From NCBI GenBank assembly GCA_000146465.1, contig CP001946.1: 64,000 nt of DNA; one strand, written 5' to 3'. The position numbers and the translations under genes are program-made. Under the pieces are notes generated by a model that searched no databases, was not told where the DNA came from, and saw only the letters and a program-made list of their open reading frames with translations. Positions 1,703-58,824 of this stretch are shown piece after piece (positions within the stretch are counted from its first letter, which is position 1; the number at the start of each line of letters is the position of its first letter).

Positions 1703-2890
1703 TTACAGCTTATCAAAAATGCTTTCGATTGCTTGGTAGTTCAACTTTCCGGAAATCCTTTTGTCCAAACTTCTGAACGCCTCAACAATAGATCCAAACT
1801 CCTCGTTTTTTCTTCTTCTCTTCCCCTTTTTGACACTACTTTTCGTCCTCTTCTCTCGCTCTCTCATGAACTCTCCATACATCTCTTCCCAGACAATCTC
1901 CCTTCTCTTGGTCTCCTCAGGCGAAAGGATGTTCCTCTCGATCTCCTCGGAGTCAGAGAGAATTTCGCTGTCCACACTGCTCTGTGGTGTCGAATAAGGA
2001 ATCACCTCGCTACTTCCCGACTCACACTCCTGCTTCTTTGCCATCTCCATTCTCTTCATCTTAACTGCAGGCGGATCCTCCTCCTTCTCAATCCATGTTG
2101 CATTGAACTCCTCGATACTAAGGTTGGCACTCTCTGTATCTCCTATCTCCTTCAGCCTCTTGTTGATTGTACTCACAGAGACATGGACTATCTTTGCTAT
2201 CTCGTATATACTTCTCTCCTCTCCCACTATCCGAGATGCAATCAGGAGTGCTGCTCCGCACAAGTTGTTTGGCCTTCTTCCAACAACAATCCAGTCCCTC
2301 TTCATCCTGCTTATCAGCCTTAGGGAAAGCCCCAGCACCTCGGTGCTTTCAAACCGCAGCCGAGACACAAACCGTGGCATATACAGAGATGGATCGATCA
2401 ACGGAATGTCAATTCCAAGCATGTTTGTTATCTTCAGAAAACTCTTTCCTATCTTAAACACATCGATATGCAGTGCATTCGAAAAATCCATCAGCATGTG
2501 TGGTGTCCTCTCCTGTCTGCAGACAATGTATATGCAGGCACTCAGAGTGTACAAAATCGATTTCCCCTTGCTTAGATTGTACTGGAGAAGAAGCTTGTAC
2601 CACCTGAACGAGCATTCCACGTGGTCAACCCCAAGCCCCAGAGATGCACATATACCGCTTATTGTGTTTTTGATGTAGTAACTGGAATCAACAAATCCGG
2701 TCCCCACATTTCGGGAATCCATCCCGACAATCTGCCCGTTCAATGTGGCTTTCGGTCCCTCTGTGTTGAAGTTCAGAGATGCAACAATTGCGTTCTCCTC
2801 CTGAACCATACCACACACTGTGCAGTAGACAGCTCCTTGTGCTGTGTCTTCCGCAAAATCCCCAGAGGAACAATTAGAACATATACCCAT
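1703..2890 (-). CDS. BRF1: TFIIIB subunit BRF1 (TFIIB-related factor), shortened to 395 aa
   Basis: N-terminal Zn ribbon CSNC...CTVCG. Cyclin repeats match BRF1: ACIYIVCRQERTPHMLMDFS, IDPSLYMPRF, LRLISRMKRDWIVVGRRPNNLCGAALLIASR. The post-cyclin block LSIEEFNATWIEKEEDPP corresponds to BRF1 homology region I. Confidence 0.85.
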   Translation of the reverse strand: MGICSNCSSGDFAEDTAQGAVYCTVCGMVQEENAIVASLNFNTEGPKATLNGQIVGMDSRNVGTGFVDSSYYIKNTISGICASLGLGVDHVECSFRWYKLLLQYNLSKGKSILYTLSACIYIVCRQERTPHMLMDFSNALHIDVFKIGKSFLKITNMLGIDIPLIDPSLYMPRFVSRLRFESTEVLGLSLRLISRMKRDWIVVGRRPNNLCGAALLIASRIVGEERSIYEIAKIVHVSVSTINKRLKEIGDTESANLSIEEFNATWIEKEEDPPAVKMKRMEMAKKQECESGSSEVIPYSTPQSSVDSEILSDSEEIERNILSPEETKRREIVWEEMYGEFMREREKRTKSSVKKGKRRRKNEEFGSIVEAFRSLDKRISGKLNYQAIESIFDKL

Positions 2891-2973
2891 GGGCTACTCG
2901 AAAGAGAAGAACTAAAAATCTTGTCTTGCCCATATCAATTAAGAAGTACATTTAATACCGAAGATACAGTCTG

Positions 2974-3705
2974 TCACTCGTATTCTTTAAAGACATATAA
3001 GTTGCTCCACACACAGAAGTCCTTTACAAGTGCCCTGGGCTCCTTTAGAAACTCAACCTCTCTATGCTTCTTCTCCAAGATCTCGTTCAACTCCCCATCT
3101 CCAATCCTTATTCCCTTCCGAGCCTCTCCTCCAACAAGATCCACAGATTCAAGCTTATACTCTACCTCTCCCTTCTTGCTTTCCTTCTCCAAGCTCGACT
3201 TAACAAATTCTTTCGTAAACTCATCGAACATCACATCGTCCTCCACCACCTCCTTCTCAACCTCGTTCATATCGCTCAGGTTGCTTCCGTTTCTCATCAC
3301 CATCCTCAGCTGTGCATTCTTCGGAAGGACTCGAAGGATGTGAAGAATAGACTCTTCGCTTCCCATGCTGTATCTATCGTTCAAGTAGTTTTTCATCGTG
3401 ACCTGATACCTCAGAAACGACAAAAGCTCAGGAATTTGATACTCATACTCCTCATAAACCTCCTCCACAAGAATTCTGCACACTAGCTCGGGAACAATCT
3501 CTCTTCCATGTCTCTTTTTTATTCGACATCCCAGTTGCTCAATATAGTATCTCAAGATGTCTGTCAGAACATTTAGTGCTTGGTCTGCCGTCTTATCAAA
3601 TCCACTCTGTGACAGCACCTCCACAACTGCAAGCTTCAGTATCTTAGTACTCATGTTTGATTTCATCTGAAATCCGAAGGAGTAATTTTTTATCCGACAA
3701 ATCAT
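2974..3705 (-). CDS. TAF8/TAF3-like TFIID subunit with a histone-fold BTP domain
   Basis: KILKLAVVEVLSQSGFDKTADQALNVLTDILRYYIEQLG matches the bromodomain-associated (BTP) histone-fold domain of TAF8/TAF3. The start could instead be an internal Met (MKSN.. or MSTK..). Confidence 0.6.
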   Translation of the reverse strand: MICRIKNYSFGFQMKSNMSTKILKLAVVEVLSQSGFDKTADQALNVLTDILRYYIEQLGCRIKKRHGREIVPELVCRILVEEVYEEYEYQIPELLSFLRYQVTMKNYLNDRYSMGSEESILHILRVLPKNAQLRMVMRNGSNLSDMNEVEKEVVEDDVMFDEFTKEFVKSSLEKESKKGEVEYKLESVDLVGGEARKGIRIGDGELNEILEKKHREVEFLKEPRALVKDFCVWSNLYVFKEYE

Positions 3706-3780
3706 GTGTCTATTTACCCATCAATTAACCAAAACCTTGGCCATGGAAATCCAGTCATTTGCCCAACTATTTCTCTCCCC

Positions 3781-4503
3781 TTACTCTTCTCCCAGGCTCT
3801 TCTTCATGGCCTCAAGCTCTTTAAGTAGGACTTCAAGTTGTAACTCAAATCTCTTTTGAAGAATCGGATTCAATGCACTTTCCATCTGCTTTCTCTTCTC
3901 CTCAACACTTTTCTCTAGACGTTCAAGCTCCTGGTTCTTTGGCTTCTCTTCCTTTTCATGCTTGGTCTCGGCAAAGGGGATTTTGGACTCTTCCGAACGT
4001 GCTTCAGAATAATCCACCAGCTTTTTCTCGATCTCTGCAGCCAGCATGTCCAGGTCATCAGACGTCTCTTTCTCCTCCTTTGTGATGACCTCAACCAGCC
4101 GGGCCCTCATGTCCTTTTCTAGAAGCTCCCCAACTTTCTTTTCAATCTCCTCAACATACTCGATCTTGCTATTTTTCTTCCGGAATCTTCTTGCCTTCGC
4201 ATACTTCAGCGGTGGGCACAACCCACTCAGCTCATGAATCTCCCGCTCCCTCTCAAAGTCAAAATCTCCATGCGGGTATACAACCACAAGAGTGGATATG
4301 TCTGCCACCTTGTAGTGTTGTCTATTATCCATTGTCTTTTGTGATTCGACTATACATGGGAGTCTTACAATTATCCCCGGATACTTCTGTCCACCATACG
4401 ACAAGACAACAGACTTTTCATTGCAAACCTCCAGTGTCGAGTTCTTGAGATCAACCTCATTCTTTATCGATTCATGAAGTCGGAGAATAAACTGCTGCTC
4501 CAT
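3781..4503 (-). CDS. TAF7: TFIID subunit TAF7
   Basis: EQQFILRLHESIKNEV, RLPCIVESQKT, KVADISTLVVV and SGLCPPLKYAKARRFRKK match the TAF7 N-terminal domain block for block. Confidence 0.85.
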   Translation of the reverse strand: MEQQFILRLHESIKNEVDLKNSTLEVCNEKSVVLSYGGQKYPGIIVRLPCIVESQKTMDNRQHYKVADISTLVVVYPHGDFDFEREREIHELSGLCPPLKYAKARRFRKKNSKIEYVEEIEKKVGELLEKDMRARLVEVITKEEKETSDDLDMLAAEIEKKLVDYSEARSEESKIPFAETKHEKEEKPKNQELERLEKSVEEKRKQMESALNPILQKRFELQLEVLLKELEAMKKSLGEE

Positions 4504-4561
4504 CTTCCAGGGCCTTTATTTATGCCATTCGAAGAAGTTCCCACATCCATTGGGAGCCCCG

Positions 4562-4936
4562 ATGAGGTCTTATATGAAGGACGGCCTGAGAATAGGATTC
4601 ACCAAGGAGACTTCTACAGATCATATCGAGGCTCTACCTCTGGAGATAGCTAGGAAGTTTGAACTACTATCGGGAATCTGCGACAACAGGTCCATACAAG
4701 AGTTTCCTGCTGCGATAATTAAAGAGATAGTCGAAATGTGCAATGATTTAAGAGACCTCGCTCCTCACTATAACATGCCTGAGGAATATGTTGAGTATGT
4801 TAGAGAGAACAAGGATGTCCTGGGATACTTTGAGGAATCCGAGAACAATCTTAAAGGAGAGGAAATGAGGATAATCAACAAGAGAAGGATATTCGATGTC
4901 TTTAGGAGTATGATGGAGAAAATGGAGGAGATGTAG
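4562..4936 (+). CDS. hypothetical protein, 124 aa
   Basis: The ORF-track start (4550) is TTG. The first ATG at 4562 is preceded by 'gagccccg'. The protein is acidic and helical with no recognised domain. It lies between TAF7 and Tra1. Confidence 0.4.
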   Translation: MRSYMKDGLRIGFTKETSTDHIEALPLEIARKFELLSGICDNRSIQEFPAAIIKEIVEMCNDLRDLAPHYNMPEEYVEYVRENKDVLGYFEESENNLKGEEMRIINKRRIFDVFRSMMEKMEEM

Positions 4937-5072: not shown

Positions 5073-8000
5073 ATGATGAAGGACCTTTTTGTAGGTAGTG
5101 AACCAAGCGAGGTGAAGGCCAACCGGCTCAAGAAGTACATGGAAAGCGGAAGATTCCTTGAAACTCTTTTTTTCCCACATGAGTTTTTGGAGTCACTAGT
5201 TTTATTTGCTATTCAGATACTCAACAGTACGGAACCTGAGAAAAAATCGTCATTTGTGTCTGGAGGGAATGAATCTCGCTACATTGTCCTCAGGCTTTTG
5301 AACAAGTTTTCGCTGAAAAGGATTAGGAATACAGGATTAGTGCATGCACTCCATTGTGTGCTTAGAAATGACAATCTCCCAAACGTGATTTTGTCACTGA
5401 AGGCATTAGGTTCTCTGAGCAGATCGGGGGTCATTGCAGGAGATCTGGTGGAGGTGCATGTTGGAGTCCTTCTTGGGATGGTTCACAACCTCTTTACAAA
5501 CCTGGAAAGTGGAGAAGAAGGGCTCATTGAGATATCGCTATTTACTCTTACAGAGATGCTGACCCATGCCAGGGTTTTTTTCCGTGGGTTGGAGTACCAT
5601 GCTGTGAAGATTGATCAATTTTTGGCCTGTGTGTATGGAAACATCAGAAGAGCTTTTGAAAACCGGAGATTCATGGATGGGATGATGCATAAAAGGACGT
5701 CTTCAATAAGCATGTGTTCTGGAATCTGTAGTCTCCTCAAGCTGACATATGAGCAGCTTCCTATTGTGTCGAAGTCAGGGCCTTATCATGTGTTTGCTTG
5801 TGAGGCAGCATTTGTTGGGATGTATTACTGTCCCTCCGATCTCCTGGACCTTAGGAAGGAGATCTACATGCTGTTTAGCAAGATGTGTATAGGAGACAAA
5901 GAGATGGTTCTTCCTATGATGGACAAAGTGTATATGGTTCCATTTCTTTTTTCTCCAGATGCACAGCCAATGAGCGTCAAGGGGATTGGAATGCTCTCTG
6001 AAATGCTCGTGCATGTTAAGGAGAACCTTAGCAAGGCAGCATACATGGAGTTTGGGTCGAAGGTATTCAATGTGCTTTTTTCAACCTGTTCTTCAATAAG
6101 GAGGCTATGCAAGGAAGTTCATGAGGGAGGAGAAGAAAGACAGAAATATCGGAGGAATGCAAGCGATATAATTAGCCAGGATATTGAAAGTCTCATAGTA
6201 TGTCTAGGGGCGGTAGAGAACACATGCAAATGCTTTGGAGGCAGGACAGGAGATTCCGAAGAACTCAGCCACATTTATCTCAAGAGCTTTTACGATATAA
6301 GGAATGGATTTGAAGGAATCCAGGGATTAGTAAGACTGGGATGCGCAGGCAAGGAGGAGGAGTTGAAGAAGGTTGTAAAGAAATTTGTCTCTGGATTTCG
6401 AGAAGTGATTGGAAGAGCGGGAATCCTTGAAAAGTCTGGAAATGGGATTGTCTTTTCTGTACCCGAGATCAATATCCTGTATGAGATATTTGAGAGGTCT
6501 TTTGATGTATTTTTGCATGAGTGCCTGTGCCAAGAGCAGGACATTGAAGAGTTTTTCTCTGTGCTGTCTCTTGTTAGAGAGCACATTGGAAGCGATATAG
6601 TCAAATGCCTTTCAGAAAGAATTGTGGAGTACAGCAAGAAAAACGGGGAGTTCTTTGGGATATGGAGATTGATGAGCAGCTCTGTAATTTTGGGAAACAC
6701 ATTCTGTGGATATGTACTTCCACGAATGATCGAGGAGCTCGATAGAGAGGGATTTGAATTTGTCAAGAGGGCAATGAGATATATTGTTCCGTTTTTTGGA
6801 AACGATATAAAGAAGATAAAGCGAGTCAATACATTCTTCATGCACAGGATAATATCAACTCTGTTGGCAGCCAAGAGGATGGAAAACTTCGAAATTTTGC
6901 TGGAGATCTTCAACATGTTTGGATCGATGCCTGAGAAGAGCAGCTTTTTCCAGAAATACATCTTCGACAACTTCTCAAGGATAGTTTCTCATCTTATGAA
7001 TCTTTATGAAGTTGAGGGAAAGAGCATATTTATAGAAATGATATTTTCCTTGCCAATAAGTATCAACCTACTTGAATCAGATATCCAATTTCTCATGAGA
7101 CCTATTGAAGAGGCCTTAATGCTTCATGGGCCAGTAAGAACCAAGGCGCTGTCTATTCTTGTGTATGTTCTTGACTTTTCAACACCAGATAAGATTTCGG
7201 GTCTTGAGAAGACATGGCAAAACATTTTAAATAACGTAGCAGAGGGCTTGAAGGATAGCACAATGCTGTCGTTGTGTTCGAGAATACTGGGGAAGCTCAA
7301 GAGCTATCACAAGACGTTTGTAGTAGATGGGAAGATGTTTGAAGAGACAAACGAAGATTTAAAACTTATTAGGATAGTGGTGGATGGAAAGCATGCAGTT
7401 CCTGGGCATCTCTTGTTTTTCGATGCAGTGCAGAAGATAAGGGGGGCCTTTGAGCTGTCTGAAAAGAGCTTTGGGCCTTCTGGTGTTCTCACCAGGTTCA
7501 GGAGTCTAGGGCCCCGATGTGGAGATGGAGAAGCCAAAGGCGCAGCATTCAGACTAGTGGAGAAGGTGGTGTGCCATCTGATGGGATGGAACTCCTCTGG
7601 AAAGAACTTGATTCAGAATTATTACGAGTCTCTTCTGGAGGAGATGGAAGAGATAGGAAGCATTCCAGACACATTGGATTACATACACTCGGTTCATGGG
7701 GTTATCTCTTCGTTAGGCGGGAGGAAATGCTCGGACAGTCGGCATTTGGCCCAGTATGTCTACGATGCAATCCTCACGCTCTTCAGTTGCCATGGAACCC
7801 CTTTTGAAAAGAAAGCTCTGGAACTCCTTCATTCTATTTTTGGAGTCGTGATACTCCACAAGATATCTACTCTTCACAGGCCCAAGGGGAAGAGATACAC
7901 GATTCTTCTTGACACAGACACATTCCTTGATGCACTTGTAGAGTCGTTTTGCGATACCGAGAACTCGATGCCTTTCAAGGTACTCTCTGTAATGTTTGTC

Positions 8001-11000
8001 CAGATGTACGAGATGTTTGGAAGGAAATGCGAATACTTCTGTGTTGAGATGTATAGGGCTGTTTTCTCCAAGCTCAAGGCCATGTGCAAGTCTTCGAACA
8101 AGAGATGTAGAGACGCTGGAATCAATGGAATCATATGTCTTGCAGCAACAATGCCTATTCGAGAGCTTGTGATGCTCCGAGTCCCGGAAGATTCGTTTTC
8201 ATGTACATACCTTTATCTTCTTCCTCGGGGATCCGAAGATTTCTCTCTTCCCCTCCGGCTGGTTGTCTTTATCTTGAGATTCAGATACAAGGGAATTAGG
8301 AATTATTTGCTCTCCTCTGGAATGGAGAGGCACTTCATGATGTCGCATTTCAGACCGTTTGTTGCAGGCCTCTTTGATGGGAGAAAGGATGTTATGGACT
8401 TTTCCCAAGCTGTGTTGAGAGAAGTGTTCCAGAGCTATGGGCCTCGCCTACTGGAAAGACACAAGGACATGGTTTTTGGGTTTTTCAAGAAGGAATATGT
8501 AATAGGAAGCAGGGAAACAATGATAATGCACTTGAAAGTGTTTATTTTCTGCGTTCGAGAGGGCAAGTGTCCGTTTGACGATTGCGAGATGAAGTATCTT
8601 ATCGAGAAGTTTCTGGATGGGATTGCAAGCAACGAGGAGTGGAGAGGAACTGGAGGGGTTTATATGGGCTTTGACCACTGTGAAAGAGACGAAAGCACAA
8701 ACAACGAGGACTTTTGCAAGTGCAACAGATGCGGGAAGGGCGAAGAAGACACAGAGATTGTTCTAGGAGGGATCCATAAGAAGTTATCTTCGCTATCTAT
8801 GAGGGATTTGATGGAAATTGCGCTTAAAAACAAAATGGATGTGGTTTGCGGAGATTGCAAGAAAAAGATCTACAGACATAAGGAGGAGTGGTCTCCTAGA
8901 TTCAGTAACGAGGGGGAGGAGTTGATTTACTGGATAAGAGAGTTTTATTTGCTTGTCATTGAGTACAGGAAGTCCTTTGAGGAGATAAGAACAGCGGTTT
9001 TGTATTTATTGAGATATGTTTCGGACGATTCCTCGGATTACCTGCAGAAGGCACACAATATACGGCCGCAAGAGACAGAAGAGGTAATATCAGAGGAAGT
9101 GGAGAAGTGTCTGTCTGAGAAGGTCGACTACAAGATCCTCAACATGTTACTGTGTGCACATTCGATATCGGGGATTCGGGAGAATCCAAGGGTAGGGATG
9201 CTTGTTCTGAAGATTCTGAAAGAATTCAGGATTCCGAAAGAGTTTGCAATAATAGCACAGAATGACAGATACTCGATGCTGGCAAAGGCGTATGAAATAG
9301 GAATTAGACTGAAAAACCAGGAGGGGCTGTGCAACGAGATTCTGGAAACATACTTTGTACTTGACGGATATGCCAAGAGTTACACTTCCAGGATGTATCC
9401 TCGAATGATTAAGTATGTAGAGGATCTTGGATCACAGTTTGTAAGTTGTATGTTCCGAAGAATTCAAGACCCATCGGCTTACGAGTTGTGTTCACAGCTC
9501 TGCAAGGACTCGGCCAAGCTAAGAGAAATGGTGTTTGGAATGAAGGACAGACTTGCGGAGAGAATATCGCAAATATATTGCAGACTGGAAGGAAATGACT
9601 CCATAGAAAAGGATGTGTTTGTGTATTCGTATCGGTTTCTTGATCTTGCAGGGTATGAGATGAAGCCTGTCGACATTCAGGTTATTCTTGGGATTTATGC
9701 TGATGTGAAGACAAAGCCCAGACATGCTGTTGAAATGAGGGGGCTGATAAATAGATGCATCGACAGGTTTTCTCCAGAGAACCTCGAGACACTGTTCAAC
9801 ATAGACCCATGGTTTATGTCTGTGGATGGGATAGACCCGGGATATCTTACAGAGGGGCTTTCACCCTTGACTCTTAGGGGGATTATCCGGAGTATTGATA
9901 AGAGAAACAGACCCATGATTGAGAATTTGAGCCTATCTCTTGGAGAAAACAGACACATGCTGATTGAGATGTTTGTGGAGATGGGGATCAGGTCTGAGAA
10001 GCTTATTGGATACTGCAAGGAGAATCTACACATCACGAACCTTAGAGGGCTCCTGCTCTACTATCTATGCACATTCGAGCCCTTGCATGTCTATTTTGAA
10101 CTCCTGTTCAAGCTCCCTTACGAAGACAGGAAGTACACGCTATACTGTCTAGAAAGGATTGTCGATGTTTTTGATCCTCTTCTCTTTGAAGAGATAATTC
10201 TGATTGTGCTGCGCTCTGAAGTAAGGTTCAAGACAAGTCTCTGTATTCTGTTTCCTCTACTTCTATCGAGGCCCAGTCTTATCAGCAAGAAGATTGTGCT
10301 TGAGCTTACAGGGTCGATCTATAAGCTTCTTGATTCAGAGAACTTCCCCCAGCAGAGAATGGGGTTTAAGCTGTTTGAAGTTCTATACAACAGGTGTCTA
10401 TTAGGAGATGGATCGGGGAATATATGCAGAGAGTATGATTGGATCATAAGGAACATATACACTCTCATGTTTGTGAGGTTTATTCATATGGATCAGGACT
10501 TGGATGGAGATCTTCTTGAAAAGTACAATCTGGAGCTTGTTTTTGAGTTGGTGGAGTACTCTCCCAAGGAGCTAAATCTTAACAACATGTTCAGCTTTCT
10601 CGAAGCGGAGATTCTGAGCAAGAAGAATGAGGAGTACAAGATATGGTTTTTGAAAAGCATTGGAATGGCCATAGCGCCGTATTTCCGATCAAGGGCTTTG
10701 GGAATCAAGGTTATTGAGTATCTGGTGCGCATTGGGATGTGGAATTACAAGCTTCTTCGGGAGGAGCTGGGGGTTGTTGTGTACGACCCGAGCCTACTGT
10801 ACAATCTCCTTTGCATGCTTTGTAGCAAAGCTGGTGAAAGAGCTGGTTTGGGATGCAAGGCTCATAGGGATGATGTAGAAAACATGGAGATATGCTTGAT
10901 AGTGATAAGACATTTATTTGCAGAGTACAATAGAGAGAGAGGAGAAGCCAACCAGAAATATGTGGAGGAAGGACTTGAGAAGCTGTTCTATGTTTTATCT

Positions 11001-14000
11001 CTATACTCTGAAATGAAGAATATTGTGTGCTCGGTAACTAGGCTGTTCGTGGAAGCATTCAAGGACAATTCCTCTCGGATAGATCCATTAGTAAGCAAGA
11101 TAAGTTTCTTGATGTCTGATTTCAGAACGTCGCTTGCAGACAAGATTGAAATGGCTTGTCTCTTGAGCAATCGAGGGCATGACAATGAGTTTCTTAGTGA
11201 GATGCTGCTTCCGGCCTTCAACAATTATCTCTACTCTGGAGTTACCTTTCCGTCAGGCCTGCAGAAGTTCTTTATGAAAGGAGTCAGTTCGAAAAACAGC
11301 ATCTTGAGGAATGGATATCTAGATCTGATGAACCGCATTGTTCCTGTAAGCAAGTGGATGAGACTTAAGTATCTGCTGGAAATGGAATGGAAGCACAACG
11401 CAAAGATAGGATACACAATGACGGCGATGATGATCCTTTCTTGCCACACAGCAGAACTGGAGGCAGAAAAGTACTCGGAAATAAGACCGAGCAAGGATAT
11501 TGAATATCCTTGGTCACGGGAGGGGATGAGATGCAAGGGAAATGTGAGCAGATGCAGTGGACTTGTTGCGAATCTTCTTGAAGATGTTGGCCTATACAGG
11601 TCCAAGGCGTCGAAGCCAGACCTCCTGGAAATTCTGTACCACTTCGACGATTCCCTACTTCCGGTGCTATCTGGAGTCTTAAGAACTACTGTATGTGGAT
11701 TGGATTCCGAGAAATGTAAAAGCATATTCGAAGGCTTTGTGAAGTTCTGCTCGGAGGTTACAGGAGAAGGGAAACTTCTTGGAGCCCTTGTTAGGGGTCT
11801 TGGGCCTATATATAGACATGCAGATCTATATGAGCTTATTAAGGTATTCCGAGGAGGAGAGGGATGGTACACGCTACTGGAGTATGCAGATGATAGGCAG
11901 AAGACAGAGATATACAGGAGATTGATGAACTTGGATGAATACTTTGGAATGTCGCGGTCGGTGTGTATTTTTCCTGAGACGATGCAGGCATATTTCCTTC
12001 AGCAAGTGGGAAAGACCAAGGAAGCACAGGATCTCTATGAGGAGATCCAAGCCAGAGCAGGAAAGCACAAGATATCTTTTGACGAAAGGGAGTACAAGCT
12101 GTGGCAAGATGAGTGGGTGGCATGTGCAAAAGAACTGCAGCAATGGGATGTATGCTACGATGCAGGAGTGGAGATCGGGGATGGCTTGCTAAGTGGAGAA
12201 TCGTTGTGGCATCTTTCGAACTTCACAAGCCAGAAGGCAGTGGAGAAACTCAAAAGCGTGATTGGCAAGGGAGTAGGATTTGAAAGAGAATTCCTCGATG
12301 TATTTGCAGATATATTTATGAAGTATTCGGCAGAGAGGATCAAGGGAATCCTAACAAAGAACATTGCAGAGCTCAGGAGTTACCCCGTAGGAAGTGGAGC
12401 AAACCTAAGAAATCTTATGTATCTGCAGATCATCATAGAAATGGTTGAGGCAGAGCCTATTTTTAACGACAAGATAGACTCGATAGAAGCATTGACATCG
12501 ATATCCTTCCGATGGAAGGACAAGGAGCCGTCCATCTACAGCTCTTTTGCAGAATGGAGCCTCTTCAAGACATGGAGAAAACATGTATATTCGAGATTGG
12601 GAATGGGAGAGAAGATGTGTGGCAGAGAGATGGGATACAAGCAGCCAGAAAGAGGTTACACAGAGGAGATGGGAAATTCCTTGGGTAGAAAGCCTATAGC
12701 ATCGCATTTGTTTTCTCCAAAAGAGATGAATGAGAACTATGCAAAGATAAAAAAGGAACTGGTGGCCCGAGGAACAAACGAATTGGCAAAGACTCTGAAC
12801 ATGTTTTCCAAGGCAGCCATCGACCATGGATACTATGATGTGGCTCTATTCCATCTTAAAGAAGTCTTTGACCTAAGCAGTGTAAAGGTAGGGGATGCCT
12901 TCCAGAAGGTTGTTTATGAGCTACTTTGCTTTCTCGGCAAGAAAGAGTACAAGATAGGAGCCGAGCAGTGCATGTCGGCAAACATACAACATTTCAGTGA
13001 TACACAGAATTCGGTACTATTCAACATCAAGGGGCTGTTCAATGAGAAGCTTGGAAAGGCTTCGGATGCCGAAAAATTCTATTTGCAGTCTGCACAGATA
13101 TGCAACACAGTTGGAGAAAACTGGCTCACATGGGCGAGTTTCTTGTTTGGTAGGATCGATGGAGATGCTCCAGAAGTAAAGGAAGACGTCTTTGTTGCTC
13201 TTCTACAAGCCATTACCTACTGCAACGGCCCAAATGCAAGGAAAGGAATTCTTAAGATGATTCTACTTATGGGAGAGCATTCCTCGCTCTGTGATGTGGA
13301 GTTGTTCCACAAGGTTCTTCAAGAGATTGACATCTCTCGATTTATATACTTTATTCCGCAACTGATTGGGCTACTGGAAAAGGAAGACTCAAGGTTGGTG
13401 CAAGCCATACTTGGCAAGATCTCGGAAGAGTATCCGCAAGCAGTGATAGGGCCCCTTAAGGCAGCTAAGGAAAGAATAAGAAGAAGCTTGGGGCTTGGAA
13501 AGGAAGATATAGAATGCAAGGTGGGGGAACACAAGGTAGAAGGTAGAAGTAGCGAAGATTCAAAGAGTCTTGGGACTGGACTGGTGACTGGAGAGAAGAA
13601 CATGTTTTTGGAGAATGTTATGTGTATATACAACCGGATAAAAAACGCCCAACCAGGGAAAGAGTTCTGGAAGATCCTTCACTATCTTCACAATTCGCTG
13701 AACTCCTTCGCCTTTAAGGAGGAGGAGCTTGTGTATCTGGAGATCGAGAAGATCTTCAACAGTGCTGTGTCGCATGTTGTGCATGGGGCTGTTCCATCGG
13801 GCCTTGGCCATGCTAAGATTCTGAACGAGCTTATTTTCCAGGTTTCTGTTTCTTCCCTAAGCCGGAAACTCAAGGAAGAGCTTACATCTTCCATTCTCAA
13901 GATGAGGTGCATCTGCCCTCTTGAGAACATCGATGAAATGGTACGGTTCAAAAGTAAGGTGCAGAAGATTGTAGAAGAATCCTTCCATAGGATGGACAAG

Positions 14001-15380
14001 TCCGAGGAGTCTGAGGTGAATCTACTGCTATACAGATCCGACTACAAGCATCGAGTATTTGGACAATACTCGGAAATAAGAAGAAGTTACAAGAGCCTTG
14101 CGAGCATAGAGATGTTTGAGCCTCGGCAGCCCTACATGTACAGAAAAAGAATGGGATGCAATAGAATTCACCTGAGAGGAAGCGATGGGAAGATGTACAG
14201 ATACGAGATGAAAGAGTTAAGGAAGATGAGGTTCTCTGAGTTTGTCCTTCCACAGATATCTTTGATGATTAACGAGGCGATGGGCGAGGACACCAACTTG
14301 CGAAGGAGAGGTGCGGAGTTGAGGTTGTTTGTTCCCTTTATTGCTAGTGAAGTTCTTGCATTGAAATGGATCAAGGAGCCTGTCTATTACATGGATAGTA
14401 TATTGGAAGAGGGGCTAAGTAGATACAAGATGAACATTGATCAATGTGTGCTTCTTTATCTTGATCACTTTGCAACTATCTACGATGGGTTAGACTCAAG
14501 TCCAGGGCATTTCGAGAACAGATATCAGCTGGAGAAGGGACTCACTGCAAGCCTAAAGCCGAGGATTCAAGGAGACGAATGCCCCAATATAAGGAAGAAA
14601 AAAGGCTTTCTTGAAAGCAAGGAGTCGCAGGAGAACCTCATAAACAATGTTAGAATGGTTATTGAGAGGCAGAGGGAGAAGTACACAAGTGGTTTGAGAC
14701 AGAACGAAGTCGAGTGTCTTGGATGCAATGAAAGAGGAGAGGGGATTTCTCCATGTACCTATAGATATGAAACCTCAAAGCGGCAAAGATACATGGCTTA
14801 CGAGAAGGTATACAACACCTTCAAGAAAACTAGCTTTGTGGATGATTACTTCAAGCTTATTTATGGAAACCTGGGAGGATACTTCCGATTTAAAAACAAA
14901 CTTCTTTCCAGTTATTCAGCCAACAGTGTCTTTTTGTACACGTTCTCTGTTGTAGACAGGAGGCCAAGAAACCTTGCCATCACCAAGACTACCGGCTGTT
15001 TTATGAATAGAGACGTCTGTTGCGAGGAAGCTGAGATATCGAGCAAAGGAAAGGGAATGGGGGCCATAGGACCAGGATACCAGAAGCTCTTTGGGAAAGA
15101 AGGGATAGAAGGCACAATGGTGTCTATTATGTATCATTATGCCGGGATGGTAAACAAGGGAGATTGGAGTAAGGATCTGGTGAAAGCTCTACTTGAAGGC
15201 AGGTTTATAGACATGACGGGAAAAGGACTCAAGGGAGCTCACAAGGAAATGCTAAGTAGAGTCTCTGAGATGATTGGAAAAGGCGAGGATGGGACCCATA
15301 ATGTGATTCCGATGGTTAGTGAGTGGATGGACATGTTCAAGCTAGCACAGATTGATCCAAGACATATGTGCTGGATGTGA
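5073..15380 (+). CDS. TRA1: Tra1/TRRAP-like PIKK-family scaffold protein (pseudokinase), 3435 aa
   Basis: A single 10.3-kb ORF with an ATG preceded by 'aaaaaccc'. It has long helical-repeat (HEAT/TPR-like) regions. The C-terminal PI3K-like domain has a degenerate catalytic loop (VDRRPRN in place of DRHxxN; no DFG). The FATC-like end is ...AQIDPRHMCWM. The size and pseudokinase character fit Tra1/TRRAP rather than TOR, ATM or ATR. Confidence 0.75.
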   Translation: MMKDLFVGSEPSEVKANRLKKYMESGRFLETLFFPHEFLESLVLFAIQILNSTEPEKKSSFVSGGNESRYIVLRLLNKFSLKRIRNTGLVHALHCVLRNDNLPNVILSLKALGSLSRSGVIAGDLVEVHVGVLLGMVHNLFTNLESGEEGLIEISLFTLTEMLTHARVFFRGLEYHAVKIDQFLACVYGNIRRAFENRRFMDGMMHKRTSSISMCSGICSLLKLTYEQLPIVSKSGPYHVFACEAAFVGMYYCPSDLLDLRKEIYMLFSKMCIGDKEMVLPMMDKVYMVPFLFSPDAQPMSVKGIGMLSEMLVHVKENLSKAAYMEFGSKVFNVLFSTCSSIRRLCKEVHEGGEERQKYRRNASDIISQDIESLIVCLGAVENTCKCFGGRTGDSEELSHIYLKSFYDIRNGFEGIQGLVRLGCAGKEEELKKVVKKFVSGFREVIGRAGILEKSGNGIVFSVPEINILYEIFERSFDVFLHECLCQEQDIEEFFSVLSLVREHIGSDIVKCLSERIVEYSKKNGEFFGIWRLMSSSVILGNTFCGYVLPRMIEELDREGFEFVKRAMRYIVPFFGNDIKKIKRVNTFFMHRIISTLLAAKRMENFEILLEIFNMFGSMPEKSSFFQKYIFDNFSRIVSHLMNLYEVEGKSIFIEMIFSLPISINLLESDIQFLMRPIEEALMLHGPVRTKALSILVYVLDFSTPDKISGLEKTWQNILNNVAEGLKDSTMLSLCSRILGKLKSYHKTFVVDGKMFEETNEDLKLIRIVVDGKHAVPGHLLFFDAVQKIRGAFELSEKSFGPSGVLTRFRSLGPRCGDGEAKGAAFRLVEKVVCHLMGWNSSGKNLIQNYYESLLEEMEEIGSIPDTLDYIHSVHGVISSLGGRKCSDSRHLAQYVYDAILTLFSCHGTPFEKKALELLHSIFGVVILHKISTLHRPKGKRYTILLDTDTFLDALVESFCDTENSMPFKVLSVMFVQMYEMFGRKCEYFCVEMYRAVFSKLKAMCKSSNKRCRDAGINGIICLAATMPIRELVMLRVPEDSFSCTYLYLLPRGSEDFSLPLRLVVFILRFRYKGIRNYLLSSGMERHFMMSHFRPFVAGLFDGRKDVMDFSQAVLREVFQSYGPRLLERHKDMVFGFFKKEYVIGSRETMIMHLKVFIFCVREGKCPFDDCEMKYLIEKFLDGIASNEEWRGTGGVYMGFDHCERDESTNNEDFCKCNRCGKGEEDTEIVLGGIHKKLSSLSMRDLMEIALKNKMDVVCGDCKKKIYRHKEEWSPRFSNEGEELIYWIREFYLLVIEYRKSFEEIRTAVLYLLRYVSDDSSDYLQKAHNIRPQETEEVISEEVEKCLSEKVDYKILNMLLCAHSISGIRENPRVGMLVLKILKEFRIPKEFAIIAQNDRYSMLAKAYEIGIRLKNQEGLCNEILETYFVLDGYAKSYTSRMYPRMIKYVEDLGSQFVSCMFRRIQDPSAYELCSQLCKDSAKLREMVFGMKDRLAERISQIYCRLEGNDSIEKDVFVYSYRFLDLAGYEMKPVDIQVILGIYADVKTKPRHAVEMRGLINRCIDRFSPENLETLFNIDPWFMSVDGIDPGYLTEGLSPLTLRGIIRSIDKRNRPMIENLSLSLGENRHMLIEMFVEMGIRSEKLIGYCKENLHITNLRGLLLYYLCTFEPLHVYFELLFKLPYEDRKYTLYCLERIVDVFDPLLFEEIILIVLRSEVRFKTSLCILFPLLLSRPSLISKKIVLELTGSIYKLLDSENFPQQRMGFKLFEVLYNRCLLGDGSGNICREYDWIIRNIYTLMFVRFIHMDQDLDGDLLEKYNLELVFELVEYSPKELNLNNMFSFLEAEILSKKNEEYKIWFLKSIGMAIAPYFRSRALGIKVIEYLVRIGMWNYKLLREELGVVVYDPSLLYNLLCMLCSKAGERAGLGCKAHRDDVENMEICLIVIRHLFAEYNRERGEANQKYVEEGLEKLFYVLSLYSEMKNIVCSVTRLFVEAFKDNSSRIDPLVSKISFLMSDFRTSLADKIEMACLLSNRGHDNEFLSEMLLPAFNNYLYSGVTFPSGLQKFFMKGVSSKNSILRNGYLDLMNRIVPVSKWMRLKYLLEMEWKHNAKIGYTMTAMMILSCHTAELEAEKYSEIRPSKDIEYPWSREGMRCKGNVSRCSGLVANLLEDVGLYRSKASKPDLLEILYHFDDSLLPVLSGVLRTTVCGLDSEKCKSIFEGFVKFCSEVTGEGKLLGALVRGLGPIYRHADLYELIKVFRGGEGWYTLLEYADDRQKTEIYRRLMNLDEYFGMSRSVCIFPETMQAYFLQQVGKTKEAQDLYEEIQARAGKHKISFDEREYKLWQDEWVACAKELQQWDVCYDAGVEIGDGLLSGESLWHLSNFTSQKAVEKLKSVIGKGVGFEREFLDVFADIFMKYSAERIKGILTKNIAELRSYPVGSGANLRNLMYLQIIIEMVEAEPIFNDKIDSIEALTSISFRWKDKEPSIYSSFAEWSLFKTWRKHVYSRLGMGEKMCGREMGYKQPERGYTEEMGNSLGRKPIASHLFSPKEMNENYAKIKKELVARGTNELAKTLNMFSKAAIDHGYYDVALFHLKEVFDLSSVKVGDAFQKVVYELLCFLGKKEYKIGAEQCMSANIQHFSDTQNSVLFNIKGLFNEKLGKASDAEKFYLQSAQICNTVGENWLTWASFLFGRIDGDAPEVKEDVFVALLQAITYCNGPNARKGILKMILLMGEHSSLCDVELFHKVLQEIDISRFIYFIPQLIGLLEKEDSRLVQAILGKISEEYPQAVIGPLKAAKERIRRSLGLGKEDIECKVGEHKVEGRSSEDSKSLGTGLVTGEKNMFLENVMCIYNRIKNAQPGKEFWKILHYLHNSLNSFAFKEEELVYLEIEKIFNSAVSHVVHGAVPSGLGHAKILNELIFQVSVSSLSRKLKEELTSSILKMRCICPLENIDEMVRFKSKVQKIVEESFHRMDKSEESEVNLLLYRSDYKHRVFGQYSEIRRSYKSLASIEMFEPRQPYMYRKRMGCNRIHLRGSDGKMYRYEMKELRKMRFSEFVLPQISLMINEAMGEDTNLRRRGAELRLFVPFIASEVLALKWIKEPVYYMDSILEEGLSRYKMNIDQCVLLYLDHFATIYDGLDSSPGHFENRYQLEKGLTASLKPRIQGDECPNIRKKKGFLESKESQENLINNVRMVIERQREKYTSGLRQNEVECLGCNERGEGISPCTYRYETSKRQRYMAYEKVYNTFKKTSFVDDYFKLIYGNLGGYFRFKNKLLSSYSANSVFLYTFSVVDRRPRNLAITKTTGCFMNRDVCCEEAEISSKGKGMGAIGPGYQKLFGKEGIEGTMVSIMYHYAGMVNKGDWSKDLVKALLEGRFIDMTGKGLKGAHKEMLSRVSEMIGKGEDGTHNVIPMVSEWMDMFKLAQIDPRHMCWM

Positions 15381-16523: not shown

Positions 16524-17063
16524 CTAGAGAGCAGCTGGAACAAACCTCTCAATAAAGCATCTTTGGCCTCTATATGTTATCAATGGGACTCCTGGAATTG
16601 TCTTTATTCTCTGCCTCAGAGCCGTATCCGAAGTTGCTACAATATAGCATCGATGTGCAGAAACTCTGTTGAAGATGCAGTCGTCTGCGTAAGTCCCCTT
16701 ATGGTCGCATTCGAGCCTTTGGACATCGTCCCCTCTGATCAGTGCGAGTGCAACACGGAAGGGCCTCCCAAGCTTCTCCAGTTCTCCAACCACACATTCT
16801 GGAACACATATTTTGATGCTTGCATTCACTGTCTTCATTAGCTGTTCCCTGATGTTGTACTTCTTTCTTACACAGTCGTTGATGAAGTTTGTATCGAGAA
16901 TGATATTATAAGGAGGCCTGAGCCTGTGGTTCAGTAGAAATCCTTCTGTGTTTCTTGGATTTTCACCGCCATCGTGAAGATTCTCAACAGGCCTTGTCTT
17001 TGCCTTCTTTCTATCCAAAATGTTAGCAACTCTCTTGCTTTTTATTGCATGCTTCACCCCCAT
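16524..17063 (-). CDS. FCF1: rRNA-processing PIN-domain protein Fcf1/Utp24
   Basis: PPYNIILDTNFIN, CVPECVVGELEKLGRPFRVAL, CDHKGTYADDCIFNRV, CYIVATSD, IPGVPLI. Confidence 0.9.
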   Translation of the reverse strand: MGVKHAIKSKRVANILDRKKAKTRPVENLHDGGENPRNTEGFLLNHRLRPPYNIILDTNFINDCVRKKYNIREQLMKTVNASIKICVPECVVGELEKLGRPFRVALALIRGDDVQRLECDHKGTYADDCIFNRVSAHRCYIVATSDTALRQRIKTIPGVPLITYRGQRCFIERFVPAAL

Positions 17064-17793
17064 CGGTCTCGAGAATACTAAGTTTTTTATCTAAATCGGA
17101 TTCCCCTTCCTCCTCCGCTCTGCATCTGTCCTGATATATAGGCTCAAAATGCCCATGGGTGTAGAAAATGGAGATCTCGTGAGGATGGTCTCCATAAACA
17201 TCCTCATTGTCTTTTGTGATATCTACAACATGAATTCGAACAGGTATACTTCCAGAAAGGGCACATATCTCCACACATCCGGCCTGCTGGTAGAAGGGAT
17301 CTACAAATCTTGTGCAGTACTTACCCACGTCCATCTCCGGGATGTAGGGCTGATACTTGTCCGGATTCGACTTTATTTCTGTTGAAACAATAAGCCTTAG
17401 GTATGCAACACAATCATATAGTGAGTAAAGAGGAACATCTTCGATCTTTTTTGTCCCATTGGCTATGTCCACCAAGATTTCGACAAACGAATCATAAAAC
17501 CCTTTGTATCCCAGCTCGTCTATATTATACAGGCAGAGGGCTTCATTCGTCTTATCAAATGCATCAATCAAAGTTCTTAATAGAACATCCTTTTCAGCAG
17601 CCAGGAGGTCTGCAAGCGCAACTGCATAGGAGATGTACAGGCAATTCCCATCCCGGATACATTCTCGGAACATTGTGTATGACTCCATGATTCTCTGAAT
17701 CCGAGCTGTGTACAAGGGATCGTGGAAGTACTTATGTTCTATAAGGTTCTTCTTGGCGCTGGTGGATGCCTCCGTATTTGTTTTCTCGGCCAT
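17023..17793 (-). CDS. Otubain-type OTU deubiquitinase
   Basis: Cys box RDGNCLYISYAV (DGNCFYRA-like) and C-terminal His box HGHFEPIY (PGHYDILY in OTUB1). The 34-aa acidic tail extends over the Fcf1 start. Confidence 0.8.
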   Translation of the reverse strand: MAEKTNTEASTSAKKNLIEHKYFHDPLYTARIQRIMESYTMFRECIRDGNCLYISYAVALADLLAAEKDVLLRTLIDAFDKTNEALCLYNIDELGYKGFYDSFVEILVDIANGTKKIEDVPLYSLYDCVAYLRLIVSTEIKSNPDKYQPYIPEMDVGKYCTRFVDPFYQQAGCVEICALSGSIPVRIHVVDITKDNEDVYGDHPHEISIFYTHGHFEPIYQDRCRAEEEGESDLDKKLSILETDGGEACNKKQESC

Positions 17794-23283: not shown

Positions 23284-25362
23284 ATGATCAAAAAAGACGC
23301 AGAAGAGATTCTTATGGATCCTCTTGCAGGAAACATCATTGATGCAGAGGAAATAGTTGCAAGGAGCGAGATAAGGGATGAGCAAGCAAGAGTTTTGGAA
23401 GAGGAAAAGGAAGATGGAAGAAAAGGATCCAGATATAAAAGGCTGCAGACTGTCTTGGGAGAAGGGACATTCAAGAAGGTTTACAAAGCAGTTGACCAGG
23501 AGGAGGGGAAGGAGGTTGCATGGAATGAGATCAAAATCAACGAGAAGGGGCAGGACAGCAAAGAGAGGGCATTATTTGCCAATGAAATAGCACTCCTGAA
23601 GTCTATTTCACATCCTAACATCCTTCGGATCCTCGACTATTGGTTTACGGCTGACAGCTTTATATTTATCACGGAGCTGATGAGTGGAGGAACACTCCGG
23701 GAGTACATAGCAGAGATAGGGGATCTGAACGTCAAGCTTATAAAGAAGTGGGGAAGGAACATTCTTGAGGGACTTGTGTATCTTCACAGCCAGGATCCTC
23801 CGATTATCCACCGGGATATTAAGTGCGAAAACATCTTTGTGAATGCAGCTCTTGGAGAGGTGAAGATAGGAGATCTTGGGGTTGCCAAGGAAAGAAGGAT
23901 GAAAAGATATACTGTTGTTGGAACTCCGCAGTTTATGGCAAGAGAAATGTTTGAGGGAGAAGGATATGGGGAGAAGATAGATGTGTATGCATTTGGGATG
24001 TGTTTGATTGAGATGGCAACGGGGGCGTATCCATATAGGGAATGCACTACGGCTGCAGAGGTCTACAAGGCAATTATACAAGGGGTTCCTCCTGTTGTCT
24101 TGAACTCTATCAAGGACGTATGTCTTAGGAATCTGATTATGAACTGCTTAGTCTCTGAAAAAGACAGGCTAAGGAGTGTGGATTGCTTGAAGCACCATTT
24201 CTTTGACAGTAGTAGCACATGCAATGGAGAATGCATTCCTGCTGAGTGCATGTCTGGAGTTCCTCTGACAGCACCTGCAAATGACATGGAAATAAGTTTT
24301 CTGTCATTCAAGGATAATGTAATTACATTTCAATTGTTTTTCATGAGCATGGCAAGGTTCATCAAGTTTGACTACGACCTCCAGTCAGACACTGTTGAGG
24401 ATGTTGCAAATGAGATGCTGGAGGAGGAGGTAGTATCTGAGGATCAGAGAGACACGCTTCTTGGGCTTCTATCACGGGGAATTGAAAAGGCAAAGCAGCG
24501 GATTGAAGAGATGGAGTGTAAGAATACAGAAGAAGAGATGAAGAAGTTGAGCATAGATACAGAGAAGGAAAAGAGCAAGGCAGAAGGGCCGAAGAATGAT
24601 TTCAACAAAATAACGGACAGAAATCTGAGTATAGAGGAGGTTGAATCGATGCTGGAGATAGATGTGAAGTTTTGCCAGGATGAGACCAGCCGTCTGTATA
24701 CCTGGTCCAGAACGGTAAGAAATGGGGATTCGAAAGTGGGGGTGGAAATTGGATCTTCTCCAGACCATTCGCCAGAACTATTACCCAGCGAAGGAATAAT
24801 GGAGGAACAGAAAAAGACTGGGGGAGGAAAGTGCTTCGACGAACTGGAGTGTCCCAATAGAAAATACGATGAAGATGTCTCTATTGAAGAGTTTGCAGCA
24901 GATGTTTCGGTTGCGACAAAGAGATCATCTGAAACAGTTACCAATTGGATAAAGGCATTCAAGTCGAATGATATCGACAGTGTGTTTGAACTAAAGATTC
25001 TTGTGGACGAGGACTGGGACAAGCTTGGGCTCACTGTTTTTTCGAGCCGAGCCATGAAGAACATGCTCTATGGAGTTGGCAAGATTCCTCTGAAGGAGAA
25101 GCAGCTTCCTACCAACACCTCGATCAAGGACTATGGAGGAGGGGTTGAGATCAAAGAGTTTCTCCATGAGATCGGGGCTATAGTTGGTAAGGACAAGTGT
25201 GTGTCTATCTGGGAAAGCAAACTTCTTGCACAGGATATTAGGACTGTCGAGGAGCTCCGATCGCTGCACCAGGACGACTGGGATAGACTGGGTCTATCTG
25301 TGTACTCGTGCAGGGTGATCAAGAATGTTATTTACAAAAAAGGAAGAGTAGTGCTTTGCTGA
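23284..25362 (+). CDS. WNK-like Ser/Thr protein kinase with two tandem C-terminal SAM-like domains
   Basis: Kinase: GEGTFKKVYKAV...KEVAWNEIK (Lys in the Gly loop, none in beta3, the WNK hallmark), IIHRDIKCENIFV, VKIGDLGVA, GTPQFMAREM. C-terminus: two about 50% identical repeats (LKILVDEDWDKLGLTVFSSRAMKNMLYG / LRSLHQDDWDRLGLSVYSCRVIKNVIYK) fitting the SAM consensus. Confidence 0.8.
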   Translation: MIKKDAEEILMDPLAGNIIDAEEIVARSEIRDEQARVLEEEKEDGRKGSRYKRLQTVLGEGTFKKVYKAVDQEEGKEVAWNEIKINEKGQDSKERALFANEIALLKSISHPNILRILDYWFTADSFIFITELMSGGTLREYIAEIGDLNVKLIKKWGRNILEGLVYLHSQDPPIIHRDIKCENIFVNAALGEVKIGDLGVAKERRMKRYTVVGTPQFMAREMFEGEGYGEKIDVYAFGMCLIEMATGAYPYRECTTAAEVYKAIIQGVPPVVLNSIKDVCLRNLIMNCLVSEKDRLRSVDCLKHHFFDSSSTCNGECIPAECMSGVPLTAPANDMEISFLSFKDNVITFQLFFMSMARFIKFDYDLQSDTVEDVANEMLEEEVVSEDQRDTLLGLLSRGIEKAKQRIEEMECKNTEEEMKKLSIDTEKEKSKAEGPKNDFNKITDRNLSIEEVESMLEIDVKFCQDETSRLYTWSRTVRNGDSKVGVEIGSSPDHSPELLPSEGIMEEQKKTGGGKCFDELECPNRKYDEDVSIEEFAADVSVATKRSSETVTNWIKAFKSNDIDSVFELKILVDEDWDKLGLTVFSSRAMKNMLYGVGKIPLKEKQLPTNTSIKDYGGGVEIKEFLHEIGAIVGKDKCVSIWESKLLAQDIRTVEELRSLHQDDWDRLGLSVYSCRVIKNVIYKKGRVVLC

Positions 25363-58752: not shown

Positions 58753-58824
58753 TTTCAGGGCAAAAATTTCTCCTGTGTTTTGCCGCCTTGGAAAAGACAA
58801 AAAGACATCTAAAACCGTATTTAA

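Follow-up and report, generated by a model that had tools for sequence, protein, structure and literature searches.

A complete gene for a Tra1/TRRAP-type pseudokinase in Encephalitozoon intestinalis

Is the giant kinase-like protein encoded in a 64,000-nucleotide stretch of the Encephalitozoon intestinalis genome (contig CP001946.1 of assembly GCA_000146465.1; hereafter the window) the Tra1/TRRAP protein that microsporidia are held to lack? Tra1/TRRAP is the only pseudokinase of the PIKK family and the activator-docking subunit common to the two main histone acetyltransferase (HAT) coactivators. The 2007 kinome paper on E. cuniculi listed two PIKKs, described a Tra1p homologue as "not evident" and asked how the parasite dispenses with Tra1 (PMC2078597); the 2024 genome paper on Vairimorpha bombi repeated the absence of Tra1 from microsporidia and argued that Gcn5 may act alone or outside SAGA (PMC10989860). 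The open reading frame (ORF) in question, 5073..15380 on the plus strand, has no internal stop, and its 10308 nucleotides (nt) and 3435 amino acids (aa) make up 16.1% of the window, in agreement with the single 10.3-kb ORF of 3435 aa and 16% of the window that the initial annotation had described. Its translation is 100% identical to ADM11504.1 (P0001) of E. intestinalis ATCC 50506, which begins at the second ATG (5076), giving 3434 aa in the GenBank record, and is named there "PI3/PI4 protein kinase" only. We identify the ORF as the E. intestinalis orthologue of Tra1/TRRAP; to the explanation as a whole, in which the protein acts via HAT complexes without phosphorylation, we give a probability of about 0.87.

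The identity of the protein is demonstrated by several sequence comparisons. All 10 of its PDB sequence matches at E<0.01 were Tra1 or TRRAP chains, colinear across the HEAT, FAT and kinase regions, with phmmer alignments spanning aa 2279-2509 and 2564-2800, and the non-microsporidian sequence matches of the full protein all carried the Tra1_ring and Tra1_central domains. Pfam FAT (PF02259) was found in the ORF protein at E 9.9e-25 and Tra1_ring (PF20206) at 28.9 bits (cut-off 27), the latter match covering only 284 of 1682 model positions. Among 10 orthologues from Encephalitozoon, Ordospora and relatives, FAT was detected in all 10, Tra1_ring in six and PI3_PI4_kinase in two, and none of the 10 had an FRB (PF08771) or other active-family-specific Pfam domain. 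Two generic models failed on the ORF protein: PI3_PI4_kinase stayed below threshold (12.1 bits, cut-off 27.1) and FATC gave no match. These misses are not counter-evidence, because Tra1-specific profiles and the fold detect both domains, and the fungal Tra1 proteins among the database matches likewise lack FATC in their precomputed domains. The kinase-like domain is thus recognised through Tra1-specific profiles and its fold, not through the generic model.

The kinase-like region by itself points the same way. A PDB search with a profile built from the final 446 aa placed Tra1/TRRAP on top (8e-14 to 2.5e-4), followed by TOR2 at 3.7e-4, over the N-lobe only. Using hhalign, the kinase-domain profile aligned with Tra1 at a probability of 98.7 (E 2.3e-16, 357 columns), compared with probabilities of 2-15 and at most 83 columns for ATR, ATM, mTOR, DNA-PKcs and SMG1; the corresponding hidden Markov model (HMM) scores were 50-55 bits for Tra1 and 2-13 bits for the five active PIKK families. 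The active-family profiles were built from returned database proteins only, all of them metazoan fragments retrieved with a chimeric bait that they matched at 87-100%, with fungal and microsporidian Tel1/Mec1 left out. In a neighbour-joining tree of the kinase domain, grouping with each active PIKK family received 0/300 bootstraps and the split separating microsporidia plus Tra1 from the active PIKKs 300/300; pairwise distances were saturated (3.6-4.0), and the tree was therefore used only to exclude active-family membership. At full length, profile alignment to fungal and oomycete Tra1 gave two colinear blocks, columns 50-1148 against Tra1 45-1233 (probability 97.5, E 6e-12) and columns 2024-3454 against 2255-3691 (probability 100, E 3.5e-64).

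The predicted structure agrees with the profiles. An AlphaFold2 (AF2) model of the C-terminal 1166 aa (aa 2270-3435), whose input alignment included fungal Tra1 sequences, reached a predicted local distance difference test score (pLDDT) of 71 and a predicted TM-score (pTM) of 0.77, and showed a helical FAT region, a two-lobed kinase fold and C-terminal helices. When the model was compared with the PDB by Foldseek, the first 16 chains were all Tra1/TRRAP from SAGA, NuA4 and TIP60 (E 3e-29 to 6e-19, TMq 0.68-0.72), followed by the first mTOR at a TMq of ~0.5 and then by DNA-PKcs and ATM. The top match was human TRRAP (9cad_D, E 2.9e-29, TMq 0.71), a subunit of SAGA and TIP60 that also matches in sequence over FAT and the kinase N-lobe but is only ~16% identical. 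Solved structures include 5ojs, 6ig9 and 8esc for yeast Tra1 and 7ktr, 8h7g and 9cad for human TRRAP. The initial reading of the protein as Tra1/TRRAP has thus come through the profile, PDB, tree and fold comparisons.

The same comparisons bear on the idea that the protein is a highly diverged active PIKK, a replacement for a missing TOR or a member of the ATM/ATR/DNA-PKcs type, that we have mis-aligned. Its GenBank name, the weak N-lobe match to TOR2 and the presence of mTOR, DNA-PKcs and ATM lower in the Foldseek list speak for this idea, although the last of these reflects a shared fold: the active PIKKs have the same FAT-kinase-FATC head (TMq 0.5-0.6), the terminal W-x and the G-x-(D/N)-G strand of the N-lobe. 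Their profile similarity to the E. intestinalis domain is nevertheless negligible, no family exceeding a probability of 15% or 13 bits where Tra1 reaches 98.7% and 50-55 bits, and the tree, the missing FRB domain, the lack of catalytic motifs and the alignment of the N-terminal 1100 aa with Tra1 all contradict it. We consider an active PIKK extremely improbable. The TOR-replacement and DNA-PKcs-like readings were rejected on the profile scores, the tree, the missing motifs and the Tra1-like N-terminus.

The protein retains the order of the family in a single polypeptide, HEAT solenoid, FAT, PI3K-like domain and FATC (Table 1), and its pseudokinase domain has N-lobe beta strands, C-lobe helices and a remnant catalytic loop in the AF2 model and the sequence. 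Fungal Tra1 shares this domain order, is colinear at both ends and gives the best sequence and fold matches, but identity is ~16-23%. Going by PDB chain lengths, the protein falls short of yeast Tra1 (3744 aa) by ~8% and of human TRRAP (3859 aa) by 11%, and the reduction relative to fungi is mostly in the middle HEAT region, ~870 aa against ~1020 aa of the Tra1 profile. The C-terminus reads KLAQIDPRHMCWM and is followed by the stop codon. Its end, ...LAQIDPRHMCWM, aligns with ...LAQM......PWF of Tra1, fungal Tra1 having the tail ...LAQ(M/I)......W(F/M), and the terminal W-M lines up with the W-[FLMVYW] in which the FATC tails of all PIKKs end; the FATC-like ...DPRHMCWM of the initial annotation is therefore correct and lies directly before the stop. 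Among the orthologues, the FATC tail is the best-conserved segment (0.68 identity), and the pseudokinase domain is conserved to the same degree as the rest of the protein (mean identity 0.54 and 0.55). In yeast Tra1, FATC plugs a hydrophobic cavity of the inactive kinase domain (PMC5576489), and the conservation of the tail, together with that of the domain, fits such a structural role.

The protein is present across microsporidia. We searched 1.84 billion representative sequences with a FAT-plus-kinase HMM and obtained 575 proteins at E <= 0.001. Next below the Encephalitozoon/Ordospora group came a JGI protein named "transformation/transcription domain-associated protein", the P0140 cluster with P0291, which is V. 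bombi KAK6089847.1 ("hypothetical protein", 3538 aa, a full-length orthologue), Nematocida ausubeli EHY66067.1 ("atypical/PIKK/TRRAP protein kinase"), a "PIK-related kinase" of Spraguea lophii and a "transcription-associated protein 1" of Conglomerata obtusa, and the named matches below the microsporidian ones were Tra1 proteins such as the S. japonicus transcription-associated protein. The orthologues form a graded chain to canonical Tra1, from Encephalitozoon and Ordospora over P0139, V. bombi and Spraguea to Nematocida. The Nematocida orthologue keeps RREER and PFRMTPN, canonical Tra1 motifs that are lost in the Encephalitozoon clade, and bridges the fungal and Encephalitozoon sequences. 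With orthologues across microsporidia and the Nematocida one labelled TRRAP, the gene belongs to an already known family.

The gene is also under purifying selection. Nine of the 10 orthologues are 3434-3462 aa long, the exception being P0008 with 3213 aa; they show 42-70% identity, and conservation is even along the whole length of the protein. The order of genes matches that of E. cuniculi chromosome 5 around ECU05_0540, the syntenic orthologue, which is 68% identical and gives a ratio of nonsynonymous to synonymous substitution rates (dN/dS) of ~0.10, a rough indicator only, as dS is saturated at ~2. The corresponding values for nine syntenic neighbours, one of them without an estimate, range from 0.02 to 0.15, and the Tra1 gene falls inside that range. 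The strong selection that had been proposed for this gene is thus purifying but ordinary, of the kind seen in its neighbours, and not exceptional. Apart from the degenerate kinase motifs, nothing suggests a decaying relic, a long ORF that has survived by chance without function, and we give that explanation practically no credence: 3435 codons without a stop, orthologues of near-equal length in at least 10 species, the low dN/dS, the synteny with E. cuniculi and the spread across microsporidia all speak against it. The conservation refutes a pseudogene.

The published premise that microsporidia lack Tra1 is wrong, as the gene in E. intestinalis, ECU05_0540 and the orthologues in V. bombi, Nematocida, Spraguea and Conglomerata show. 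The 2001 annotation of E. cuniculi already contained ECU05_0540 (CAD26573.1), and V. bombi encodes a full-length orthologue, yet the paper on its genome cites Tra1 as absent. Among the papers accessible to our literature search, none reports Tra1 from microsporidia or gives a list of the SAGA/NuA4 subunits in this group. The main value of the finding lies in correcting this claim, the gene being otherwise an ordinary conserved eukaryotic one. As a full-length Tra1 is kept under purifying selection, models of the minimal transcription machinery of microsporidia should include Tra1-containing HAT complexes.

The catalytic residues of the domain are not conserved. In a MAFFT alignment with the ATR, ATM, mTOR, DNA-PKcs and SMG1 fragments, VDRRPRN, which falls within the interval 14900-15380 given in the initial annotation, takes the place of GDRHxxN without a gap, keeping the Asp (D3295) and the Asn (N3300) and having Arg for the His. 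A regular-expression search of the kinase-like region found no D[FLY][GN], DRH or PFR motif, and at the DFG position there is only the Asp of NRDVC; all 18 of the sampled active PIKK fragments carry both GDRHxxN and D(F/L/Y)(G/N). The initial annotation had reported a degenerate loop and no DFG motif. The second statement is accurate; in the first, the motif and the loss of its His are real, but the degeneracy was overstated, as the Asp and Asn positions are occupied. Canonical Tra1 loops are degenerate too (SNRTPSR, SSRHPSR, GDRAPHR, GARRPQN), and fungal Tra1 has likewise lost the DRH His and the DFG; on the other hand, the yeast loop reads N-R-T-P-H-K where the E. intestinalis protein keeps Asp and Asn, and (G/S)PGYQ stands in place of the PFRLTPN of fungal Tra1.

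Variation among the orthologues clarifies the standing of the residues that remain. The loop reads DRRPxN, DRKPEN, NRQPSN, ERDVKK or DRDVKK, and none of the 10 has His at the catalytic His position. Ordospora has K at the loop Asn position and two species N or E at the loop Asp. At the DFG-Asp position, three of the 10 (E. intestinalis, E. romaleae and E. hellem) have D, E. cuniculi has V, and T, R or M occur in other species. At the Lys position, 3047, Encephalitozoon has K, the remaining members of the clade have R, and fungal Tra1 has Q or E. An intact set of Asp, Asn and DFG, which the initial annotation had named, along with a phylogeny placing the protein among active PIKKs, as grounds for refutation, was looked for and not seen in the conserved form of active kinases; as the Asp, Asn, DFG-Asp and Lys positions vary among such close orthologues, they look like relics that are not under selection as a set. 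It could be argued that nucleotide binding, or a weak kinase activity, has survived in the domain of E. intestinalis and its nearest relatives, as the positions of K3047, D3295, N3300 and D3314 are all occupied in this species, E. romaleae and E. hellem. However, the His is gone in all 10 orthologues, the E. intestinalis protein lacks the F-G of DFG as well as the PFR(L)T motif that follows the activation loop, the DFG-Asp is Val in E. cuniculi at 68% identity, Ordospora and two further species have replaced the Asn or the Asp, the generic PI3_PI4_kinase model gives 12 bits, and in solved Tra1 structures an FRB-like element occludes the cleft (PMC5576489). We regard such activity as very improbable, and the protein is almost certainly not an enzyme.

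This conclusion bears on the names in the databases. The E. romaleae record, too, reads "PI3/PI4 protein kinase", that of E. hellem (P0004, WEL38607.1) carries the name "focal adhesion kinase", which seems to have arisen from a wrong expansion of the acronym FAT, and no Encephalitozoon or Ordospora record says Tra1 or TRRAP. Identification of the protein as Tra1 corrects both misleading names, and the correction matters for drug-target kinase screens, since the protein is almost certainly not an enzyme.

If the orthologue works as its yeast and human counterparts do, it would phosphorylate nothing and would serve DNA-bound activators as a large docking surface for the recruitment of HAT complexes. 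These would be a NuA4-like complex around Esa1, whose integrity Tra1 would support, and/or a SAGA-like complex around Gcn5, with Tra1 at its periphery; the kinase-like domain and the FATC tail would form a structural core for folding and for incorporation into the complex. In SAGA, Tra1 makes limited contacts and is anchored peripherally without being a scaffold, and in NuA4 it supports integrity (PMC5576489, PMC6868236). The label of SAGA/NuA4 scaffold given to the protein in the initial annotation is therefore apt for the integrity of NuA4 but not for SAGA. The V. bombi paper reports GCN5 from each of the 36 microsporidia that it analysed and ESA1 from all except V. bombi (PMC10989860). The other ORFs of the window included nothing recognisable as a SAGA- or NuA4-specific subunit.

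Several points weigh against this interpretation. Pfam Tra1_central (PF20175) was undetected in the E. intestinalis protein and the 10 orthologues, and the middle ~870 aa gave no significant alignment to fungal Tra1 in the full-length hhalign comparison. Three arginines in the cleft of Tra1, R3389, R3390 and R3456 in yeast, are conserved and functionally important (Berg et al., PMC5982823). By an approximate mapping to the yeast numbering, done by hand from the PDB sequence alignment and the published mutant names, only the equivalent of R3390 is kept, as an invariant Arg in nRiHlRGsDG; that of R3389 is N or S, as it is in Smittium Tra1, and that of R3456 is L or V. The grouping with Tra1 in the tree could partly reflect shared divergence of the sequences, and the fungal Tra1 sequences in the AF2 input may bias the model toward a Tra1-like shape. 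A role as SAGA/NuA4 subunit, activator binding, the lack of kinase activity and an association with Gcn5 or Esa1 in microsporidia are presumed from yeast and human, the reported conservation of Gcn5 and Esa1 giving indirect support (PMC10989860). Finally, the anchors of Tra1, Spt20 and Taf12 in SAGA and Eaf1 in NuA4, as well as the TTT chaperone, may be missing from the reduced genome.

The only unusual feature of the gene is a pair of Cys4 insertions, one between HEAT helices and one between the N-lobe and the catalytic-loop remnant (Table 1). All cysteines of both clusters are invariant in the 10 orthologues of the Encephalitozoon/Ordospora clade; the protein has 12 C-x(1-4)-C pairs, and only the three inside the clusters are invariant. 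Cluster 1 and the CxxC of cluster 2 were also found in P0139, and sequence comparison found no such insertions in Vairimorpha-like, Nematocida, Spraguea or fungal Tra1. AF2 predicted a small beta/alpha element with low confidence for cluster 1 and gave a pLDDT below 50 for cluster 2, and the argument for zinc binding is therefore the invariant spacing of the cysteines. We consider it plausible from the sequences that the clusters are putative zinc-binding mini-domains specific to the Encephalitozoon/Ordospora/P0139 clade. We know of no report of Cys4 zinc-binding mini-domains in Tra1/TRRAP.

The insertions lend some weight to the alternative that the protein is Tra1 by descent but works outside canonical SAGA and NuA4, in a minimal Esa1/Gcn5 module or a different assembly, the insertions replacing contacts with lost partners. 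Loss of many complex subunits is reported for microsporidia, one case being the LisH domain of Taf5, which contacts Spt20 (PMC10989860), the insertions are unique to the clade, only one of the three cleft arginines is conserved, and the middle HEAT region cannot be aligned with fungal Tra1. Nevertheless, the regions that in yeast dock activators and contact partners (N-terminal Finger, FAT and head) stay alignable and conserved, nearly all microsporidia keep both Gcn5 and Esa1 (PMC10989860), and nothing positive speaks for another partner. We consider a non-canonical assembly unlikely. More speculative still, and in our view improbable, is that Tra1 of Encephalitozoon and Ordospora has been remodelled, with two zinc-stabilised Cys4 mini-domains, one in the HEAT ring and one inside the pseudokinase domain, that contact a reduced set of partners, and with a pocket that binds a nucleotide or metal ligand, its four Lys/Asp/Asn/Asp positions being nominally occupied in E. 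intestinalis, E. romaleae and E. hellem; such a Tra1 would be a functionally distinct variant and not a passive relic. Neither idea displaces our interpretation of the protein as a Tra1 acting via HAT complexes.

Table 1. Features of the Tra1/TRRAP orthologue gene of E. intestinalis, in window positions.
Feature	Residues (aa)	Position	Strand	Basis or remark
Complete Tra1/TRRAP orthologue gene	3435 codons plus stop	5073..15380	+	ORF list, translation
N-terminal HEAT solenoid	~50-1148	5220..8516	+	Colinear with Tra1 Finger, N-clasp, Ring start; hhalign
Tra1_ring match	737-1027	7281-8153	+	PF20206, within N-terminal HEAT solenoid
Divergent middle HEAT region	~1149-2023	8517..11141	+	No significant alignment to fungal Tra1
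Cys4 cluster 1 (putative zinc site)	C1215, C1217, C1259, C1262 (CxC-x41-CxxC)	8715..8858	+	~80-aa insertion between HEAT helices
FAT domain	~2279-2800; Pfam core 2376-2730	11907..13472	+	PF02259; all-helical in AF2 model
PI3K-like pseudokinase domain	~2994-3400	14052..15272	+	Tra1 profiles, AF2 fold, Foldseek
Residue at ATP-contacting Lys position	K3047	14211..14213	+	Alignment (mTOR LLK-GHEDLR)
Cys4 cluster 2 (putative zinc site)	C3170 (ECPN), C3215, C3218 (CLGC), C3228 (PCxYxY)	14580..14756	+	~70-aa insertion
Catalytic-loop remnant VDRRPRN	3294-3300	14952..14972	+	Gap-free alignment on GDRHxxN
NRDVC at HIDFG position	DFG-Asp = D3314	15006..15020	+	Alignment
FATC-like C-terminal tail KGEDGTHNVIPMVSEWMDMFKLAQIDPRHMCWM		15279..15377	+	Alignment with Tra1 tail ...LAQM......PWF

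The surroundings of the gene hold further observations. Directly upstream, at 1703-4503 on the minus strand, are three genes for basal transcription factors, Brf1 (TFIIB repeats plus a BRF1 domain), a Bromo_TP_like histone-fold protein and TAF7 (TAFII55_N), and E. cuniculi (L001) shows the same arrangement. The histone-fold protein (2974-3705) is of the TAF3/TAF8/Spt7 type; its best PDB match, TAF8, is weak (E 0.16), and a choice between TAF3, TAF8 and Spt7 was not possible. An Spt7-like identity would make it a partner in SAGA. A small ORF of ~124-128 aa lies between TAF7 and Tra1 (4550-4936, plus strand), ending 136 nt before the Tra1 start, and E. cuniculi has a called 124-aa gene without Pfam match at the same position (L001 9483-9857).

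Farther downstream, positions 23284-25362 on the plus strand encode a protein kinase of 692 aa whose C-terminus gives weak OSR1_C and WNK CCTL2-like matches; judged by these it may be of the WNK/OSR1 type, in a genome from which most stress-signalling kinases are said to be missing. The second-largest ORF of the window (54745-58800, minus strand, 1351 aa) has DEAD and Helicase_C domains and ~530 N-terminal aa without a Pfam match. On the minus strand, the ORFs for Fcf1 (16524-17063) and otubain (17023-17793) share 41 nt if the longest ORFs are used. The otubain gene is called shorter in E. cuniculi, with 220 aa against 256, and the overlap therefore probably comes from an upstream in-frame ATG.

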